This document shows, in pieces, positions 1 through 7,693 of a stretch of 24,643 nucleotides of DNA. Below the pieces are notes generated by a model. That model ran no database searches. It was not told the DNA's origin and saw only the letters and a list, made by a program, of their open reading frames with translations. The stretch comes from Promethearchaeota archaeon (GTDB lineage Archaea; Asgardarchaeota; Lokiarchaeia; Sigyniarchaeales; SOKP01): assembly GCA_048941285.1 (NCBI GenBank), contig JBHLNS010000046.1, positions 1-24,643 of the forward strand, in the 5' to 3' direction. Positions within the stretch are counted from its first letter, which is position 1, and each line of letters starts with the position of its first letter. The translations under genes were made by a program, and so were the position numbers.

Positions 1-671
1 TTACTTTCATCCTTAATCCTAATAAGAGATTTTAGAATTTCATCCGCTGTTCTTATCCTATCTATTACATGCCCTATTGTTGGATAATAAAAGTCGTGTG
101 CATCAATATGTTGCTGTATTTTTTGTTGATATGTTGATTTATACCAATTAACTAAATTGTCAACTTTACTTTTTAAATTCTTAATATAAAAATCCCTTTT
201 TATAGTCTTTATAAAATTCTCAATTACAGTTTGGTAAATAATAAGTTTGTGTTCATTATCTTCAATGTAAGTACTAATTGGTTTATACATTATTTTTTCT
301 ATATGGTACTTGCCGTTTTTGAATATAATTTGACATTCTCCAAACTTAAAAGATGCCAGTTTGGCATATGTACCACTTAGAACGTTTGAGCTTTCATCAA
401 AACCGATAATTTTATAACCATCATCAATATACTCGGAAATTTCACTTGAAATTATGTGATAAGGCATTTCTATGAAAACAGATTTAGTATTTATAAGACT
501 TTCATCATTATCAAATTTGTCTGTTTCTAATTCAATTTTCTCCTCTTCTGACCATTTCACTCTTCTTTCTTGGATGTATTCCTTGAACTTTTTAACTTCA
601 TCATCTATTGATCTTTCGGGTCTTTCTTCAAAGGATTTTTCCAAAGAAATTAATTCAAAATCAAACGATAT
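1..671 (-). CDS. NurA-like (RNase H-fold) nuclease; N-terminal ~220 aa only, runs off the left edge; absent from the ORF track
   Basis: Manual translation gives an open minus-strand frame from 698 to the window edge: ISFDFELISLEKSFEERPERSIDDEVKKFKEYIQERRVKWSEEE...GYKIIGFDESSNVLSGTYAKLASFKFGECQIIF...GHVIDRIRTADEILKSLIRIKDES. IIGFDES resembles NurA motif I (hhxhDGS) and RIRTADE resembles the conserved helical Glu. It lies directly downstream of herA. The start is uncertain: ATA at 671 behind GGTGAG, or TTG at 644. Confidence 0.65.
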   Translation of the reverse strand, partial: MSFDFELISLEKSFEERPERSIDDEVKKFKEYIQERRVKWSEEEKIELETDKFDNDESLINTKSVFIEMPYHIISSEISEYIDDGYKIIGFDESSNVLSGTYAKLASFKFGECQIIFKNGKYHIEKIMYKPISTYIEDNEHKLIIYQTVIENFIKTIKRDFYIKNLKSKVDNLVNWYKSTYQQKIQQHIDAHDFYYPTIGHVIDRIRTADEILKSLIRIKDES

Positions 672-705: not shown

Positions 706-2448
706 TTACGGTAAACCTGTAGGAGGTGGTTTAATTCCTTGTGATTCAAATTTACTTGCAAATTCTTCATAGAATTTTTTTGAAACATTCTTAAAATAAT
801 CGTCATATAGAGGTATTCTTAATTTTTGAAAATTAGTAAGCCAAATCCCTGAAATCAGTGCAATCCCTCTAGTCCCTGTCAATGATTCCAAATCACTATA
901 TTGAATTCCTCCTCCTAAAGTTTTAGCGGCTGCTGTTTTTTCTCTATCAGATCTTAAAGGTAAGTTAATTACTGTATTCATGTTTGATAAAATCGTGTCA
1001 TCAATAGGAGAATACTGTTGTGATATAACTTCTAAACCTAAATTGAATTTTCTTCCTTGGCGTGATATATCTTTAAATACATTACTATATTTCATCATTT
1101 CAGGACGTAATATGCTAGGAGCTTCTTCAATTGTAAAAATTATTATTGGCATCTTTGTAGGATCCTTTATCGAGTTTCCAGTTTTCACATAAATCTTTTT
1201 TATATTGGCTTTGTAATTATCATAAAAATTTCTAGGAAGTGTTTGTTCTAACTTCTTTTCTAAAGTGGGTAAGTCTGTAGACGATTTGAGTGATTTTCTG
1301 ATATCAAATAACGTTCTTGCTAAAACACCATTAAATAGGAACTGTTCTAAATCAGAAATCATAGATGAATTAAAAATTATTATTCCTCCTTTCTCTAATT
1401 TTTTAACAATTTTTGGTAATTTACTAATTGCATTGGATTGAAACATATCTGAATATTCTAGCCAGTGCATTCGTCTTCTTATGGCTGCCATAGTTTTATC
1501 ATCATGGCCGCCTGGTGGCCTATAACCATCCGTTAACAAATTTTCGATATAATTGTCCTGATCATTTCTATATGCTGAAAATATGGCTCCTACCTGCAAA
1601 TCATTAAAAGTGCCAGTAGCGAAAAGATCTTCGGGTTTTATTTCTTGATAATTAATAATACATGGTTGAGCCATACTTTTTGCTTCAGCAGGAGGAATCC
1701 CTTTATTAGGATAAAGATAAAACCACTTTCCGAATAGTTTTTTATTGTATTGGGACGCTTTACAAATATGAAAAACTCCGTAATCAATACATCCTAAAGC
1801 ATATTCATCATGCATATCTATAGCTAGCATAGAAATTTTTGTTCCTTTGTTATTAACTATAACATTTGCATTATGTTGAAGCAATCCATCAATAAAAACT
1901 TGATTTAAATTTGATTTACCCATTCCTGTTGCTCCAGCAATAAAAAAATGATACATTAGATACTTATAGGGGAAAAAAACGTCAACTTTTGATTCGGAAG
2001 CTAAATTTCCCATAAATATTCCTTCTGGAGTGAAAATTTTTTTTAAATATTCTGATCTATCCTCCTGAATTTCAGATATTTTCATTGAGTGAGGTTTTAA
2101 AACCTCTTTTTCCATCAAATCTTCAATAATAAAAAATACATTGATATTGTGGTCAATTTTTTGCTTAGTTTTCTTATTTATTTCTGTACATATGATTGGA
2201 CGTCCTTGAATTACGTATTGTAATTCAGTTTCTAATTCAGCAGTGATATAATCAGTTATTTTTACATTCTTTAATTTTTGCCTTGTTAGGACATAATCTG
2301 AAATGGTTTGTTCATTTAGTATTTGAATAATTATAAAATATTTCCTCACATCGCTCTCGGCTTCGAGTTTAACAAATCCATGAAGATGGATATATTTTTC
2401 ATAAAAAATCTCTATGGTACTTTCCAGAGAATTTATTTTAATTATCAT
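706..2448 (-). CDS. herA: HerA/FtsK-superfamily ATPase (HerA-like DNA translocase)
   Basis: Walker A HFFIAGATGMGKSN, DMHDEY (canonical DxHGEY), Walker B FTIEEAP, and arginine-finger/sensor RQGRKFNLGLEVISQQ. The beta-rich N-terminus is compatible with a HAS barrel. Confidence 0.88.
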   Translation of the reverse strand: MIIKINSLESTIEIFYEKYIHLHGFVKLEAESDVRKYFIIIQILNEQTISDYVLTRQKLKNVKITDYITAELETELQYVIQGRPIICTEINKKTKQKIDHNINVFFIIEDLMEKEVLKPHSMKISEIQEDRSEYLKKIFTPEGIFMGNLASESKVDVFFPYKYLMYHFFIAGATGMGKSNLNQVFIDGLLQHNANVIVNNKGTKISMLAIDMHDEYALGCIDYGVFHICKASQYNKKLFGKWFYLYPNKGIPPAEAKSMAQPCIINYQEIKPEDLFATGTFNDLQVGAIFSAYRNDQDNYIENLLTDGYRPPGGHDDKTMAAIRRRMHWLEYSDMFQSNAISKLPKIVKKLEKGGIIIFNSSMISDLEQFLFNGVLARTLFDIRKSLKSSTDLPTLEKKLEQTLPRNFYDNYKANIKKIYVKTGNSIKDPTKMPIIIFTIEEAPSILRPEMMKYSNVFKDISRQGRKFNLGLEVISQQYSPIDDTILSNMNTVINLPLRSDREKTAAAKTLGGGIQYSDLESLTGTRGIALISGIWLTNFQKLRIPLYDDYFKNVSKKFYEEFASKFESQGIKPPPTGLP

Positions 2449-2604: not shown

Positions 2605-4737
2605 CTATAAAAGATCAATTGCAGATTTAAATAAATCTTTCTTATCAATTTTCTTTTTTTGCTTCTCAGGCTTAAATTGAACTGAAGATTTTCTGTACAC
2701 CTTAGGACTCAGTTCAGACACAAATTGAGAGGTTCTTACTATCTGAGGACCTCGATAAGTATTTTTTATAGATGGAGATATTAGATAGAGTTGATCTTTT
2801 GCTCTTGTAAGGGCAACATAAAATACTCTACGTTCTTCCTCAAAAGTATCTGGATCTCCTACGCTCCTACTTGATGGGAATGAATCCTCACATAACATGG
2901 GGATAAAGACTATACGCCATTCAAGTCCTTTAGCTCTATGTATAGTAGATAATATTAATGGTCTCTCTTCTTCTGTTTGCTCTTCAACATGAACAGTTCT
3001 GGATTCTAAATTTGATAAATTTAGACTTAAATTTTCTAAGAATTTTCGAATAGTTGGAAAATTCTGAGCATACACACTTAGTTGTTTTAAATCGTCTACT
3101 CGTTCTTCCCAATTATCAAATTTCGATTTTAAGTGATCTTCAAGGACTTTTATTAAATTTTGAATAACCTCTGATGGATTATCTTCAGGTGTAAAATTAA
3201 TTAATTTTTTCACATAAGAAATTAAATTTTTTATTCCCTCCTTGGATATGCGAGATCCTTTTAATTTTTCAACATAAAACATCTTATTAATCAAGGCATC
3301 AATCGGATGTTCTATTATAGATATGGCTTCAAAAATTTTCGAACCAGAAGATGTACCAATTCCTTGAATTATTGAAAAAATTCTGGACCATGAGACTTCA
3401 TCATATGGATTCTCAATTATTTTTAAATGAGCTAAAATATCTTTAATATGTGCTCTTTCAAAAAACGCAACACCGGCTCTAACTTCATATGGGATGTTCT
3501 TCGCTCTTAATTCAAGTTCTATTCTTAGAGAATGAGAACCCGCCCTAATTAATATTGCCATCTCTTCTAAATCATATCCATCTGAACGTAATTTTAAAAT
3601 TTGATTAGCTATAAAACTTGCTTGTTCCATATCATCTCCTAAAGTTATTTGAAATGGCAACGTTCCTTTAGGACGCGTGGTTCGCATGGCCTTTTTAAAT
3701 TGCTTTTTATTATGTTCTATTGAGTTATTAGCCAGTTTTAAAATCTCAGGTACGCTTCTATAATTATATGTTATTGTATACCGCTTACAATTTTGGTATC
3801 TATTTTCAAAATTGAGAATATTTTCGAAATTGGCACCTCTAAATGCATATATGCTTTGGGCATCATCCCCAACAGCTATAACATTATGTTCTGGGTTCTG
3901 TTTAACGATTTTATATATAATCTCGTCCTGAATGTAGTTCGTATCTTGGTATTCGTCCACAAGAACATATTTTATGTTCTTTGCAATTAATTTAGCAACC
4001 GCTCTCTCATCCAATAACTGATTCCAATAAATTAATAAATCATCAAAATCTACCAAATTGTCTTGAGCTTTCTTCTCTCGATAAATCTTAAAGACTTGCT
4101 CTAATTTTTTGATGATTTCTTCACTTTCAAATTGAGAATATTTCCAGAGGATAACATCTCGAATAGATTTATTACAATTAATGGAAAATGACAAAATATC
4201 TTTTGCCATTCGAGAATTTGGAAATCTTTCTTGGAGTTCTTTAACCTTCGCTTTCTCAATTGAAAGTTTCATCAATAAACGTGAATCAGTTTCATCCATT
4301 ATTATATAATTTGTTTTTAAACCTAATGTTTTTGCATATTTTCTAATAAAACGATTCGCTATAGAGTGAAATGTTCCTCCCCAAATTCCTTTTGGTTTCT
4401 TTCCTAACAGTGTTTCTACACGCTTAATCATTTCATTAGCTGCTTTATTTGTAAATGTTACAAGCATAATTTGATTTGGTTTAACACTGGATAATAATAA
4501 TTTTGCCACTGAATAAGTAATTGTTCTTGTTTTCCCACTACCTGCACCAGCGATAACTAGCATAGGCCCCTTAATATTATCAATGATTTTCAATTGTTCC
4601 TCATTCAAATCCGTTTCAAAAGATATTTTATTATATTCCTCTATAATAACTGGAGGTTCTTCTAAAGATTCAGCATAATCTTCGTCATAGATCTCAAATA
4701 CATACTCTTCTTCTAGATTGTCTTTTTTCTCATTCAA
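2605..4737 (-). CDS. uvrD: UvrD/PcrA/Rep-family superfamily 1 DNA helicase
   Basis: LNEEQ, AGAGSGKT, VTFTNKAA, GTFHS, LVDEYQD, VGDDAQSIYAFRGA, NYRS, STIHRAKGLEW, EEERRVFYVALTRAK. TTG start. Confidence 0.96.
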   Translation of the reverse strand: MNEKKDNLEEEYVFEIYDEDYAESLEEPPVIIEEYNKISFETDLNEEQLKIIDNIKGPMLVIAGAGSGKTRTITYSVAKLLLSSVKPNQIMLVTFTNKAANEMIKRVETLLGKKPKGIWGGTFHSIANRFIRKYAKTLGLKTNYIIMDETDSRLLMKLSIEKAKVKELQERFPNSRMAKDILSFSINCNKSIRDVILWKYSQFESEEIIKKLEQVFKIYREKKAQDNLVDFDDLLIYWNQLLDERAVAKLIAKNIKYVLVDEYQDTNYIQDEIIYKIVKQNPEHNVIAVGDDAQSIYAFRGANFENILNFENRYQNCKRYTITYNYRSVPEILKLANNSIEHNKKQFKKAMRTTRPKGTLPFQITLGDDMEQASFIANQILKLRSDGYDLEEMAILIRAGSHSLRIELELRAKNIPYEVRAGVAFFERAHIKDILAHLKIIENPYDEVSWSRIFSIIQGIGTSSGSKIFEAISIIEHPIDALINKMFYVEKLKGSRISKEGIKNLISYVKKLINFTPEDNPSEVIQNLIKVLEDHLKSKFDNWEERVDDLKQLSVYAQNFPTIRKFLENLSLNLSNLESRTVHVEEQTEEERPLILSTIHRAKGLEWRIVFIPMLCEDSFPSSRSVGDPDTFEEERRVFYVALTRAKDQLYLISPSIKNTYRGPQIVRTSQFVSELSPKVYRKSSVQFKPEKQKKKIDKKDLFKSAIDLL

Positions 4738-4752
4738 TTTTAGATGCTGCTC

Positions 4753-5820
4753 TTATGTTAATTTTAACTTATTAAGCAAGGGTTTACTCCACTCTAATAT
4801 TTCAGGGAAATTTATTTTTTTCTGTTCAATAAATTTTTTGCGATTAAAATAAATAAATTTCTTTCTATCTTTTATAGTAATATTTGTAAATTTATATATT
4901 GGTTCATATGATAAGTGTTTTATATCAAAACTCTCTGCAAATTTTTCAATTGGCACTGGAGCATTATCTATAATAAATTGTAATTCATGTAATGTTACTA
5001 AATCAATAAATTCTAAATCTCTTGATTCTTCACCAACAATTTTCTCCCAACAATCTTTATATAATTCAACAAATAATGCATGCTTTCTTTCAGCTTCTTT
5101 TATTGAAATCTCTTTAGTTAGAATTATTTCAGAAATTTTTCTTTTCCAATCTTTAGGTAACCATTTAAGGGAATAAGAATAATTTAAAGCCCACTTCTCA
5201 TAAGGAGGATATTCATCATTTGCTAAAAAGGCCAAATCAATTAGGCCAGATACTGCATTAATTATCAATTGATTTGCTGTTAAAGCATCACCCCTATTAA
5301 TCCATTGTATTACTACCAAATCTCCAATATACATACATTTTCTAAAAGATTTTGAAAGGCAGTGAAATTTTTCTTGTGAGGTAAATACATCTTTTTCTTT
5401 AAATAAAGCCTCGATCTTACCTCTTGGATCGAACAATATTTCATTATATGATGCATCCCACTTTTTAATTAAATCCCAATCCTCTTTAATTTCTTTTTCA
5501 AATGAAAAAAATTCAATATCTACGTAGCAACCCCTCCATAATGCATCATTATGAGGAATAGGTCCCATTCCAGTAATCCAATGATTATAAATATCGTCTG
5601 CTAAATACACATTTAAATCTATTTCAGATAATTCATCCCCATAACCTCTGCTGAGACCTCCACAAAGAGTTATCCCAATTACCCCCACTTCATTTTTAAG
5701 TTCTTCTACGATTCTTTTTACATCTTCCATCATTTCCTTATATTTACCCTTCGAATAAATCGCTCCATAAGGTCTTTCTTGCCTACTTCTTATCCCAATA
5801 GTTTTGTTAAATAGTTCCAT
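4753..5820 (-). CDS. Pol-beta-superfamily nucleotidyltransferase with helical C-terminal domain (DUF4037-like)
   Basis: GITLCGGLSRGYGDELSEIDLNVY matches hG[GS]x9-13DhD (here EID), with a third acidic strand VDIEF, ILFDPRG and a NDEYPPYEKW motif. Confidence 0.75.
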   Translation of the reverse strand: MELFNKTIGIRSRQERPYGAIYSKGKYKEMMEDVKRIVEELKNEVGVIGITLCGGLSRGYGDELSEIDLNVYLADDIYNHWITGMGPIPHNDALWRGCYVDIEFFSFEKEIKEDWDLIKKWDASYNEILFDPRGKIEALFKEKDVFTSQEKFHCLSKSFRKCMYIGDLVVIQWINRGDALTANQLIINAVSGLIDLAFLANDEYPPYEKWALNYSYSLKWLPKDWKRKISEIILTKEISIKEAERKHALFVELYKDCWEKIVGEESRDLEFIDLVTLHELQFIIDNAPVPIEKFAESFDIKHLSYEPIYKFTNITIKDRKKFIYFNRKKFIEQKKINFPEILEWSKPLLNKLKLT

Positions 5821-5923
5821 TTTTCAATAATTATCTTTTAATAAAAAAATAAAATTAAATCTTGAGATACAATAATTCTCATCACATAAATATCCAATTA
5901 TTACTCAAGGATATAAAACTAAC

Positions 5924-6217
5924 TTATACAAGGCCGACTAAAATTTTAAAGGCGGCAGTCTCTTCCCCGTCATCTACAGATGTAATTGTATATGAAATAT
6001 CATGTTTATCTCTTACATTAGGTGCTACTCGAGCGGAAATGAATTTCATTCTTGGATTTGTATTTTTACCTTCCCAGATCCATACTTTTCTCGAGTGTTT
6101 ATCTATAAAAAGAATTATTTTATTTGAATCTAATAATTCAAATAATGGATGATTTTCCTTAATTTGTATTTCTTCAAAATCCTCTAATTCTTCATTAAAT
6201 TGATATATAACTATCAA
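5924..6217 (-). CDS. Single-domain gelsolin/villin-like protein (~97 aa)
   Basis: LLDSNKIILFIDKHSRKVWIWEGKNTNPRMKFISARVAPNVRD...ITSVDDGEETAAFKILVG follows the gelsolin-repeat consensus (LxSxDxFhLD...hWhWxG...long helix...VxEGxExxxF). The likely start is TTG at 6217 rather than 6295. Confidence 0.82.
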   Translation of the reverse strand: MIVIYQFNEELEDFEEIQIKENHPLFELLDSNKIILFIDKHSRKVWIWEGKNTNPRMKFISARVAPNVRDKHDISYTITSVDDGEETAAFKILVGLV

Positions 6218-6361
6218 AATAAAAACGAGTGAATTTCTTATACTATATAATAATAATTTTCTTAATGATTTATAAACTTTTGATATTCCTCTCAAATTAG
6301 CCTATAAACCTAAAATGAACTTATTAATTAAAGCCATTAAGATTTGGGAGATTTTACAATC

Positions 6362-6730
6362 TTAGTAATCTTTTTGAAATCTTCTTCTTCGTAACGTTGA
6401 GATGAGGTGTCCTCTTGAGAGTAACTGAATTCCAAATTGGGAGCTATATTCTCGAGAAAAATCTGTAACGACATTACAAATCATAATTCCCCCTTCAATA
6501 TTAGTATCAATACAAGCTTTATGTAATTGCCTCAATTGAGTAATTGAGATTTCTCTTTTCCAGTCTCGAACAAAAACTCCAAAAGTATTAAGTTTATTTT
6601 TTACAATAGCATCAAATGTCCAAGACTTACCAGATTTACCTTTAAATTGTACTGGGCCTTTAGCAAAATCGTATTTTTCAGAAAAAACACTTTTGGCTAA
6701 TTCAATTAATTCTTGGTCTCCTAATGACAT
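6362..6730 (-). CDS. Stand-alone Mrr-like (PD-(D/E)xK restriction-endonuclease fold) protein, probably catalytically degenerate
   Basis: KGKSGKSWTFDAIV...GVFVRDWKREISITQLRQL...GGIMICN..TDFSREYSSQFGIQLLSR has the Mrr_cat layout, but the (E/Q)xK position reads FVR. Confidence 0.65.
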   Translation of the reverse strand: MSLGDQELIELAKSVFSEKYDFAKGPVQFKGKSGKSWTFDAIVKNKLNTFGVFVRDWKREISITQLRQLHKACIDTNIEGGIMICNVVTDFSREYSSQFGIQLLSRGHLISTLRRRRFQKDY

Positions 6731-6871
6731 GAATTACACTATTTATGTAATATATAAATATTATTTCTATATGGATCTAAATATTATTTAAGTGGATATA
6801 TTACGTCTGTAATATCTTTTATATAGAAAGAGGAGAATTATCCTGACAAAAGCAAAATAATAGAATATATT

Positions 6872-7693
6872 CTAAAAACCCTCAATTTCAACAAATTTAA
6901 ACAACTTTATAAAAGAATATTCCCCTTCTGAATCAACACCATTTTCTTTTGTATAACGTAATAAATTTTGTTGTAAAAACTCAATTAATCCATTAGCTAC
7001 TTTATCACAAATGTTTCTGCAATCTAAAAAATTATGTTCATAATATTTACATTTGCTATTATATTTCTTACAAATTTTTTTCATTTGTAAGGATACTCCT
7101 TGAGCAGATAAAATAGTAATACAATCCCAAGTATCTTTAAAACCAGCTAAATTACTTGGAGAAGTCTGCATTAACAGCTTTAATAATCTTTTCCTGCATA
7201 AAATATCATCTAATCGATATTGTATAGCTTTAGCTTCTTTTCTGGCTTCAAGTTGGCAAAGAAAAATGTAATATTTAAGTAATTTTTCAGCTTTCTTTGT
7301 TTTAATGGGATCAAGGATCTTCCACCCCCTAGCTCTTTTACAACTTATTTCTTTATTGTCAAAATTATCAAAGTTCGTAGGATAAATCCAACATTGGGGT
7401 ATTTTAATCTGCGAGTCATGTACAATACATCCATTAATAGATTTATCGAATAGGAAGCATTTTCCTTTTTCTTCATCGAATCTTAATTTAAAACTGAAAA
7501 TATCTCCTCTAATAAAATCGTTTTCATTAGCATAACCTAGTTTTATATATTTTTCTGCTAATATTTTTGGTACATCAATCTGAATTGAACAACAATCTCC
7601 ACTACATATCTGCAAACAATTAGGGCCTTCAATTGCTGATTTCATTAAACTATTGAATTTTTTAACAACATCCCAGAATTTATCTACAACCAC
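6872..7693 (-). CDS. YkgJ/UPF0153-like cysteine-cluster (Zn/Fe-chelating) protein
   Basis: CLQICSGDCC, CFLFDKSINGCIVH, PQCWIYP, plus a second Cys group CKKYNSKC...DCRNIC. GTG start. Confidence 0.72.
   Translation of the reverse strand: MVVDKFWDVVKKFNSLMKSAIEGPNCLQICSGDCCSIQIDVPKILAEKYIKLGYANENDFIRGDIFSFKLRFDEEKGKCFLFDKSINGCIVHDSQIKIPQCWIYPTNFDNFDNKEISCKRARGWKILDPIKTKKAEKLLKYYIFLCQLEARKEAKAIQYRLDDILCRKRLLKLLMQTSPSNLAGFKDTWDCITILSAQGVSLQMKKICKKYNSKCKYYEHNFLDCRNICDKVANGLIEFLQQNLLRYTKENGVDSEGEYSFIKLFKFVEIEGF

Follow-up and report, generated by a model that had tools for sequence, protein, structure and literature searches.

In eukaryotes, the control of Rad51 filaments by mimics of the FxxA motif (BRCA2, RECQL5, the BRC-variant (BRCv) motif of Srs2, Rad52 and others) plays a central part in keeping the genome stable. 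The UvrD-family enzymes are 3'-5' translocases on single-stranded DNA (ssDNA). Several of them, namely UvrD, PcrA and Srs2, dismantle filaments of recombinases (PMC4999840; PMC13470658). The first BRCv motif, FXTA(S/T), is present in RECQL5 and MCM9 and was predicted in yeast Srs2, Sgs1, Mph1 and Pif1 (PMC7949153); in Srs2, the BRCv region (aa 836-860) lies C-terminal to the UvrD-type core and promotes the interaction between Srs2 and Rad51 in vitro (PMC5239998). In RadA, as described in PMC1874592, the beta-strand that bears the phenylalanine runs straight into helix alpha5. Here, we analyse a stretch of 24,643 nucleotides of a Promethearchaeota archaeon (assembly GCA_048941285.1, contig JBHLNS010000046.1, positions 1-24,643, hereafter the window; genome G000, genus g1 of the GTDB family f1), which encodes a helicase of the UvrD/PcrA type whose C-terminal tail is probably a short linear motif that docks onto RadA by mimicking the polymerisation motif of the recombinase. 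The elements of the helicase gene are the following:

2605-4737, minus strand: coding sequence of the UvrD/PcrA-type helicase of superfamily 1A (SF1A), 710 aa, with a TTG start (translation of the open reading frame, ORF, and Pfam)
4645-4737, minus strand: clade-specific disordered N-terminal extension, residues 1-31 (alignment, AlphaFold2 (AF2) model)
2698-4611, minus strand: helicase core, residues 43-680, aligning to PcrA, UvrD and Rep (Pfam, NCBIfam, structure matches, AF2 model)
2632-2682, minus strand: basic disordered linker, residues 686-702 (translation, AF2 model, comparison of tails)
2608-2631, minus strand: FKSAIDLL, residues 703-710, predicted mimic of the RadA polymerisation motif (translation, conservation, comparison with RadA)
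2605-2607, minus strand: stop codon of the helicase (translation)

Past the last core element, the translation reads ...VQFKPEKQKKKIDKKDLFKSAIDLL-stop, exactly as in the original prediction, and the C-terminus of the protein is ...KKDLFKSAIDLL-stop. An AF2 model was computed from 82 sequences and has a mean predicted local distance difference test (pLDDT) of 71. In it, residues 686-705 are coil (pLDDT falls below 50 for 691-701), followed by a helix of four residues at 706-709. This agrees with the basic flexible linker ending in DLFKSAIDLL-stop that had been proposed. More generally, the tail comprises about 25-40 residues, is lysine-rich and disordered, and carries a motif with the consensus F-x-[ST]-A-x-[DE]-L-[LIV]. 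A comparison of the last 30 residues with solved structures returned one irrelevant match (E = 1).

The motif is highly conserved. Among the 120 homologues listed by a word-indexed search, which are 70-100% identical to the helicase, 118 have F-x-[ST]-A-x-x-[LIVM], with one acidic and one hydrophobic residue after F-x-[ST]-A; the two exceptions are one sequence with Y-K-T-A and one partial sequence. In the alignment of 82 sequences, no columns among the last 25 residues are invariant or nearly so except F703, A706 and L709. The loci of family f1 that were derived from genomes give a similar picture: F-x-[ST]-A is found in 10 of 11 and in 19 of 20 loci of two sets (29/31), which span nine genera, with identity down to 46% and linkers that cannot be aligned. 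Here the two loci without it are those of G207, where a second paralogue lacks the tail, and of G270, where the motif reads F-S-T-G. Across about 150 orthologous tails, the phenylalanine (Y once) and the alanine (G once) are effectively invariant, so that the original prediction, which was to be abandoned if these two residues varied among orthologues, survives on this point. Synonymous codons turn over at the same positions (four codons for Ala, eight for Ser/Thr and two for Phe across 35 loci), which indicates selection on the peptide and not on the DNA.

The context of the motif was quantified over 101 distinct tails. The spacer between the last core motif and the phenylalanine has 22-30 residues, and lysine or arginine make up on average 7.1 of the 20 residues ahead of it (35%). 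The 8-mer is the very C-terminus in 43 tails; in the other 58 it is followed by up to 16 mostly basic residues, and the extensions of at least 5 residues (38 tails) are 51% lysine or arginine. The motif is therefore not necessarily terminal, and its description as the end of the protein applies to the former group but not to the latter. In one orthologue (L147, G135:C172:700-1500), about 40 further residues past the motif end in a CxxC...CxxC element resembling a zinc ribbon.

The tail closely resembles the polymerisation motif of the RadA proteins of the same genome. G000 has two canonical RadA genes, with the inter-domain linkers GFKSADKIWEKR (RadA of 332 aa) and GFKSAEDVWEHR (RadA of 420 aa). 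Their polymerisation motifs are GFKSADKIW and GFKSAEDVW, and the FKSA of the tail is identical to both; the tetrapeptide of the tail is thus the polymerisation tetrapeptide of the cognate recombinase itself. In 1.10 million ORF residues, only three sites match the pattern FKSA.[DEK][LIV][LW], namely those of the two RadA and of the helicase tail. When aligned to solved recombinases, FKSAIDLL is identical at 7 of 8 positions to the motif GFKSGIDLLKQR (FKSGIDLL) of the RadA of M. voltae (1t4g); the other solved motifs are FKTALEV in the RadA of S. solfataricus and FMRADEYL in the RadA/Rad51 of P. furiosus. Orthologous tails such as FQTADELL, FTTADKLL and FISADTLL fit the same RadA pattern. By these comparisons, the whole 8-mer is within the known diversity of RadA motifs, sharing with the RadA/Rad51 motif (strand beta0 and the start of alpha5) the pattern F-x-[ST]-[AG]-x-[DE]-hydrophobic. 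The order of coil and helix predicted for the tail also fits the order of strand and alpha5 in RadA. Unlike the RadA motif, the one in the tail is part of a helicase, whereas in a recombinase the motif separates the N-terminal domain from the ATPase domain, and, unlike the motif of Asgard RadA, it lacks the preceding glycine and the conserved W-E-K-R continuation of the helix. The lysine-rich flanks fit a proposal made in PMC7837696, which predicts that a basic patch beside FxxA motifs contacts an acidic patch of Rad51 near the pocket and which describes this acidic patch as structurally conserved in archaeal RadA. Other proteins of the proteome with motif-like matches (an alcohol dehydrogenase and the beta subunit of an F420-hydrogenase) were dropped as docking motifs because the matches are inside folded enzymes.

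The genome encodes three RadA-type genes in total (L001, L002 and L003, on contigs C68, C70 and C36). The RadA of 332 aa is canonical. In the one of 420 aa, a CxxC...H...H element is present at the N-terminus, along with a long acidic stretch. The third protein, of 408 aa, has an extra C-terminal region resembling a helix-hairpin-helix and the linker motif DFTPAAKI. In the genomes of family f2, only the long type of RadA was found.

The motif reproduces the beta-strand and the first helical turn of the polymerisation motif and, if the tail does dock onto RadA, Phe703 and Ala706 would insert into the polymerisation pocket of the RadA ATPase core. The partner could be a protomer whose pocket is free at the end of a filament, or free RadA. 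The basic residues on either side may contribute, via the acidic patch beside the pocket or via DNA. Docking would then keep an SF1A translocase of 3'-5' directionality tethered to RadA, either unbound or in filaments on ssDNA. The outcome that we tentatively favour, by analogy, is the remodelling or stripping of RadA filaments, i.e., an anti-recombinase activity, because UvrD, PcrA and Srs2 dismantle filaments of RecA or Rad51; for the proposal as a whole, this remains a possibility held with less confidence than the docking itself.

The comparison with the described systems shows both likenesses and differences. Like the BRC and BRCv motifs, the F-x-[ST]-A peptide of the tail belongs to a disordered segment that is not part of the catalytic core, and it copies the oligomerisation motif of a recombinase (PMC7949153; PMC7837696). 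Unlike them, it has an archaeal host and RadA as its predicted target, and it is placed at or near the C-terminus in a lysine-rich tail. It also differs from BRCv in being a single module that runs into a first helical turn, as in RadA: the second BRC module (phi(L/F)XX(D/E), PMC7949153), expected about 14 residues downstream, was not found in the tails, whose extensions are lysine-rich and without such a pattern. The helicase resembles Srs2 of S. cerevisiae in having an SF1A core of the UvrD type followed by a non-catalytic C-terminal region with an element for interaction with the recombinase (predicted here), and it would be expected, by analogy, to act on recombinase-ssDNA filaments (PMC4999840; PMC13470658). 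In contrast to Srs2, its tail has only about 25 residues, in which no PCNA- or SUMO-interaction motif was seen, and bacteria supply its closest relatives beyond Asgard, of the UvrD/PcrA type (identity of about 40-44%). Among solved structures, it matches PcrA, UvrD, UvrD1 and Rep best, the alignments reaching about residue 680; the search of solved structures gave bacterial helicases only, and no search yielded an Srs2 sequence. This points to an analogy: "Srs2-like", the term of the original prediction, is apt in that sense alone, and the helicase should not be classed as an orthologue of Srs2.

The Pfam profiles UvrD-helicase (PF00580; E 2.7e-73, 247.4 bits for a cut-off of 23, which places the protein in the family) and UvrD_C (PF13361; E 1.6e-56, 192.7 bits for a cut-off of 25.6) together span residues 44-653. 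The equivalog cut-offs of NCBIfam were missed for PcrA (455.9 vs 911.2 bits), UvrD (367.4 vs 1144) and Rep (353.8 vs 951), and by these scores the protein is a member of the UvrD/PcrA/Rep family and the equivalog of no named enzyme. The PcrA model of NCBIfam is covered only up to position 652 of 725, and the solved PcrA (1pjr) only up to residue 645 of 724. Because both alignments end before it, the Tudor-like C-terminal domain of PcrA and UvrD has no counterpart in the helicase, and the AF2 model has no folded domain past residue 685; its absence had been correctly anticipated. As in bacterial UvrD, PcrA and Rep, all helicase domains are present, and the gene is the sole member of the family in its genome (G000 has one PF00580 match), which also encodes UvrB and MutL. 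Unlike these enzymes, the protein scores far below the equivalog cut-offs, lacks the Tudor-like domain and has clade-specific extensions, acidic at the N-terminus and basic at the C-terminus. Judged by its sequence, it is a bacterial-type UvrD/PcrA SF1A enzyme in which the usual C-terminal domain was swapped for a motif-bearing tail in one Asgard family. The N-terminal extension keeps an acidic-aromatic stretch, EEEYVFE.YDEDY, in which F14 and E15 are invariant in the alignment of 82 sequences; it is not found in the relatives from families f2 and f9 or from bacteria, whose matches begin near residue 37-44. This stretch may serve for docking as well, or may pair with the basic tail of the same protein.

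The tail is restricted to a part of the distribution of the helicase. At E <= 1e-100, family f1 has the helicase in 64 of 68 genomes, family f2 in 5 of 7 and family f9 in 3 of 76, and it was absent at this threshold from the other 27 Asgard families sampled. The helicases of f2 and f9 (39-45% identical; 9 loci in 8 genomes) end about 15-40 residues past the last core motif and are tail-less, so that the motif expected in the Asgard orthologues is a feature of family f1 and not of the Asgard helicases at large. All the searched f2 and f9 genomes with a tail-less helicase encode UvrB (5/5) and MutL (5/5): the presence of the tail does not track that of either protein, and the tail is thus an add-on that is not needed for these partners. 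The tail is specific to the family, and the helicase that bears it probably performs the usual work of UvrD as well. RadA is present in 20 of 20 and in 47 of 49 genomes of the two sets that were searched; at E <= 1e-60, no tail-bearing genome that was searched lacked it. An alignment scan of genome contigs retrieved mainly bacterial loci and one archaeal locus. In a search at the level of 50% clusters, four representatives, the closest ones (48-57% identity), were the only ones with the motif.

Two genes of the window follow the helicase on the same strand:

706-2448, minus strand: HerA-like ATPase, 580 aa, 156 bp downstream of the helicase (DUF87, 51.8 bits vs a cut-off of 23.2)
3-644, minus strand: divergent nuclease of the NurA family, N-terminal 214 residues, cut by the end of the contig (homologues in relatives)

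The HerA-like protein missed the HerA equivalog cut-offs of NCBIfam, and the NurA fragment of the window had no match in Pfam. Its intact counterpart in close relatives has 390 aa, and PF09376 is matched by 18 of 43 members of that family; downstream of nurA, these relatives encode a Mre11-like phosphoesterase (Metallophos) and then a Rad50-like ATPase (AAA_23, SMC_N and a weak zinc hook). The end of another contig of G000 (C64:105700-106337) abuts base 1 of the window, the assembly break being inside nurA: the last 190 codons of C64 continue the nurA ORF of the window (with an overlap of two residues) and are followed by the mre11-like and rad50-like genes. The order is helicase-herA-nurA-mre11-rad50, and the resection cluster is complete in G000. 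The position upstream of herA and nurA, invoked in the original prediction, is therefore real and extends to mre11 and rad50, but as shown below it is not general. A defence-type HerA module, suggested for P0002/P0004 by weak PADLOC matches to HerA and mad8, was set aside given this continuation.

Other genes of the region and genome are of independent interest. On the other side of the helicase, a protein of 122 aa (6362-6730, minus strand) is conserved upstream of it in L007, L134 and L135. It has a weak match to Mrr_cat, below the Pfam cut-off, and its AF2 model (pLDDT 69) matches nucleases of the PD-(D/E)xK type, the top Foldseek hits being NucS/EndoMS (2vld, 5gkj), AF1548 and the nuclease domains of Card1/Can2. 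As modelled, it is a small protein of nuclease fold beside a repair helicase. In the window, a gene for a nucleotidyltransferase/DUF4037 protein of 355 aa (4753-5820, minus strand) stands between the two and looks like a recent insertion; the corresponding gap has no ORF of at least 100 aa in L134, L135 and L007. G000 also has a second NurA gene (G000:C1:84788-86068; L129 8789-10069, minus strand; Pfam E 1.8e-18), which stands alone among genes for Pus10, a ribosomal RNA dimethylase and a Ras-family GTPase, with no HerA gene beside it. The genome encodes four DUF87/HerA-type ATPases.

Several observations weigh against the proposal that the tail serves to target RadA and that the helicase acts in recombination. 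First, the similarity between the tail and RadA, as measured on the sequences, is short: a profile of 12 columns of the Asgard RadA motif (dominated by IWEKR) did not retrieve the helicase among the top 12 matches in the proteome, and a profile of 9 columns of the tail ranked the short RadA 7th of 5413 ORFs, with a non-significant score. Second, RadA is almost invariantly G-F-K-S-A in the family (as judged on 17 f1 loci and on those RadA sequences, 94 of 122, in which the anchor located the site), whereas the tails vary at the x positions (FQTA, FTTA, FITA, FISA) while RadA stays FKSA. There is thus no real co-variation, the only hint of it being in genus g6, where the short RadA has FLTAD and the tails FTTAD and FLTAD. 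Third, the genetic organisation is not conserved. The linkage of the helicase with the resection genes is found only in genus g1 (helicase and HerA-like gene adjacent in 7 genomes), these two genes being on different contigs in 9 genomes of other genera. Adjacency of radA and the helicase is found in one genome only (G065, genus g4; L127 = G065:C8), where the short radA (3757-4755) is 140 bp upstream of the helicase (4895-7030) on the same strand and the helicase ends in ...NFKTANDLL; G099, which at first seemed to be another case, did not hold up when checked, and the adjacency is not a general rule. Fourth, as the sole UvrD-family gene beside UvrB and MutL, the helicase may have its main job in excision or mismatch repair. 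Fifth, the C-termini of UvrD-family proteins carry many lineage-specific endings in distant, mostly bacterial relatives, and two of the distant homologues (P0261 and P0345, respectively 41% and 38% identical to the helicase, with 41% identity between them), which have bacterial clusters as their nearest neighbours in the atlas, both end in F-x-R-A-D-E-L, which closely resembles the F-M-R-A-D-E-Y of the P. furiosus type. If their hosts are bacterial, a similar ending exists without RadA and the case for RadA docking would be weakened; if they are archaeal, this would be an independent replicate of the RadA-type ending. The F-x-R-A-D-E-L ending was not seen among the relatives from the metagenome scan (all at about 40% identity). 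The variety of endings in the bacterial relatives suggests that helicases of this family generally use their C-terminus to carry docking peptides. Recurrent endings were observed in P0268, P0293, P0295, P0305, P0308, P0318 and P0320 and in loci L160-L239 (one cluster with a Parcubacteria record), e.g., [FL]L..[IV]D[DE]L amid acidic residues (7/150), EFDPADESQ..WED, IDL.ARMRGMW and PFDQWLIDEAY.

The tail could dock onto RadA and yet favour recombination, with the helicase carrying or loading RadA onto new 3' ssDNA together with HerA, NurA, Mre11 and Rad50. There are functional parallels for this: RecB, the SF1A subunit of RecBCD, loads RecA, and the BRC repeats of BRCA2 chaperone Rad51 monomers. 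The evidence for motif mimicry serves loading as well as it serves stripping, and in g1 the helicase heads the herA-nurA-mre11-rad50 cluster, on the same strand. Furthermore, a peptide that binds the pocket would most easily bind monomeric RadA cores, such as the linker-less domain of P. furiosus in the accessible part of PMC4856416. However, the tail is present in nine genera and the linkage with resection genes in one, and the characterised UvrD, PcrA and Srs2 remove recombinases (PMC4999840). The number of motifs also speaks against loading, each helicase having a single one. BRCA2, for comparison, carries several BRC repeats. All considered, we regard a role in loading as less likely, yet as a serious alternative.

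No more likely than loading, in our view, is the idea that the tail docks onto another partner (UvrB, MutL, PCNA, RPA/SSB or the HerA-like ATPase) and that its likeness to RadA is coincidental. The status of the helicase as the sole UvrD-family enzyme in a genome with UvrB and MutL, the many endings of UvrD-family C-termini, the short similarity to RadA that is non-significant in profile searches and the F-x-R-A-D-E-L endings of P0261 and P0345, with their bacterial neighbours in the atlas, are all in line with it. Yet several of the candidates meet a difficulty. UvrB and MutL accompany tail-less helicases in 5 of 5 genomes of f2/f9. Of 71 family genomes, only 24 have the HerA-like gene, compared with 64 of 68 for the helicase, and its product thus cannot be the universal partner of the tail. 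The PCNA-interacting peptide (PIP) box has the consensus Q-x-x-[LIVM]-x-x-[FYW][FYW]; inspection of the tails revealed no pattern Q-x-x-[LIVM]-x-x-[FY][FY], no conserved glutamine and no aromatic pair. Finally, the residues that do not vary in the tail (F, S/T, A, acidic, hydrophobic) are also those of the RadA motifs.

It is more improbable still that the tail has no protein partner and is an auxiliary DNA-binding or auto-regulatory element, with a terminal amphipathic turn folding back on the enzyme. The strongly basic composition would suit such a role, as would the low confidence of the tail and its lack of a fixed position in the AF2 model of the monomer. But binding DNA requires no invariant F-x-[ST]-A, the basic residues are not conserved in position while F, A and L are, and the motif is internal to the basic region in 58 of the 101 distinct tails. 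The last alternative, a chance pattern of four residues without function, which the original prediction had acknowledged and for which one can cite the 2857 occurrences of the bare F-x-x-A in the 3891 ORFs of G000 (uninformative by itself), is already refuted by the 118 of 120 homologues, the 29 of 31 f1 loci, the synonymous codon turnover and the divergent linker: given this conservation and its identity to the FKSA of the cognate RadA, the tail motif, as a sequence, exceeds chance, and we give its fortuitous origin hardly any credit.

Docking onto RadA, with filament stripping as its tentative outcome, would have consequences beyond this locus. Searches of article full texts found no archaeal helicase described as bearing a motif of this kind. 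It is conceivable, on the resemblances described above, that a bacterial-type UvrD helicase was independently fitted, in an Asgard lineage, with the same device that controls Rad51 in eukaryotes: a disordered tail that copies the polymerisation peptide and thereby aims a translocase at RadA filaments. We put this forward tentatively. If true, the helicase would be an archaeal functional counterpart of the BRC-variant motifs of Srs2 and RECQL5 and, to our knowledge, the first helicase outside eukaryotes known to target a recombinase by mimicry of its oligomerisation motif. A small soluble helicase with a minimal, single motif and a RadA of the thermostable type would provide a simple system in which binding of the pocket is coupled to the removal or the loading of filaments. 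The regulation of Rad51-family recombinases through the FxxA pocket would then exist in the archaeal relatives of eukaryotes, which would bear on whether such regulation predates eukaryotes in these relatives or arises readily by convergence, and a likely anti- or pro-recombination helicase would have been identified in a major Asgard family.

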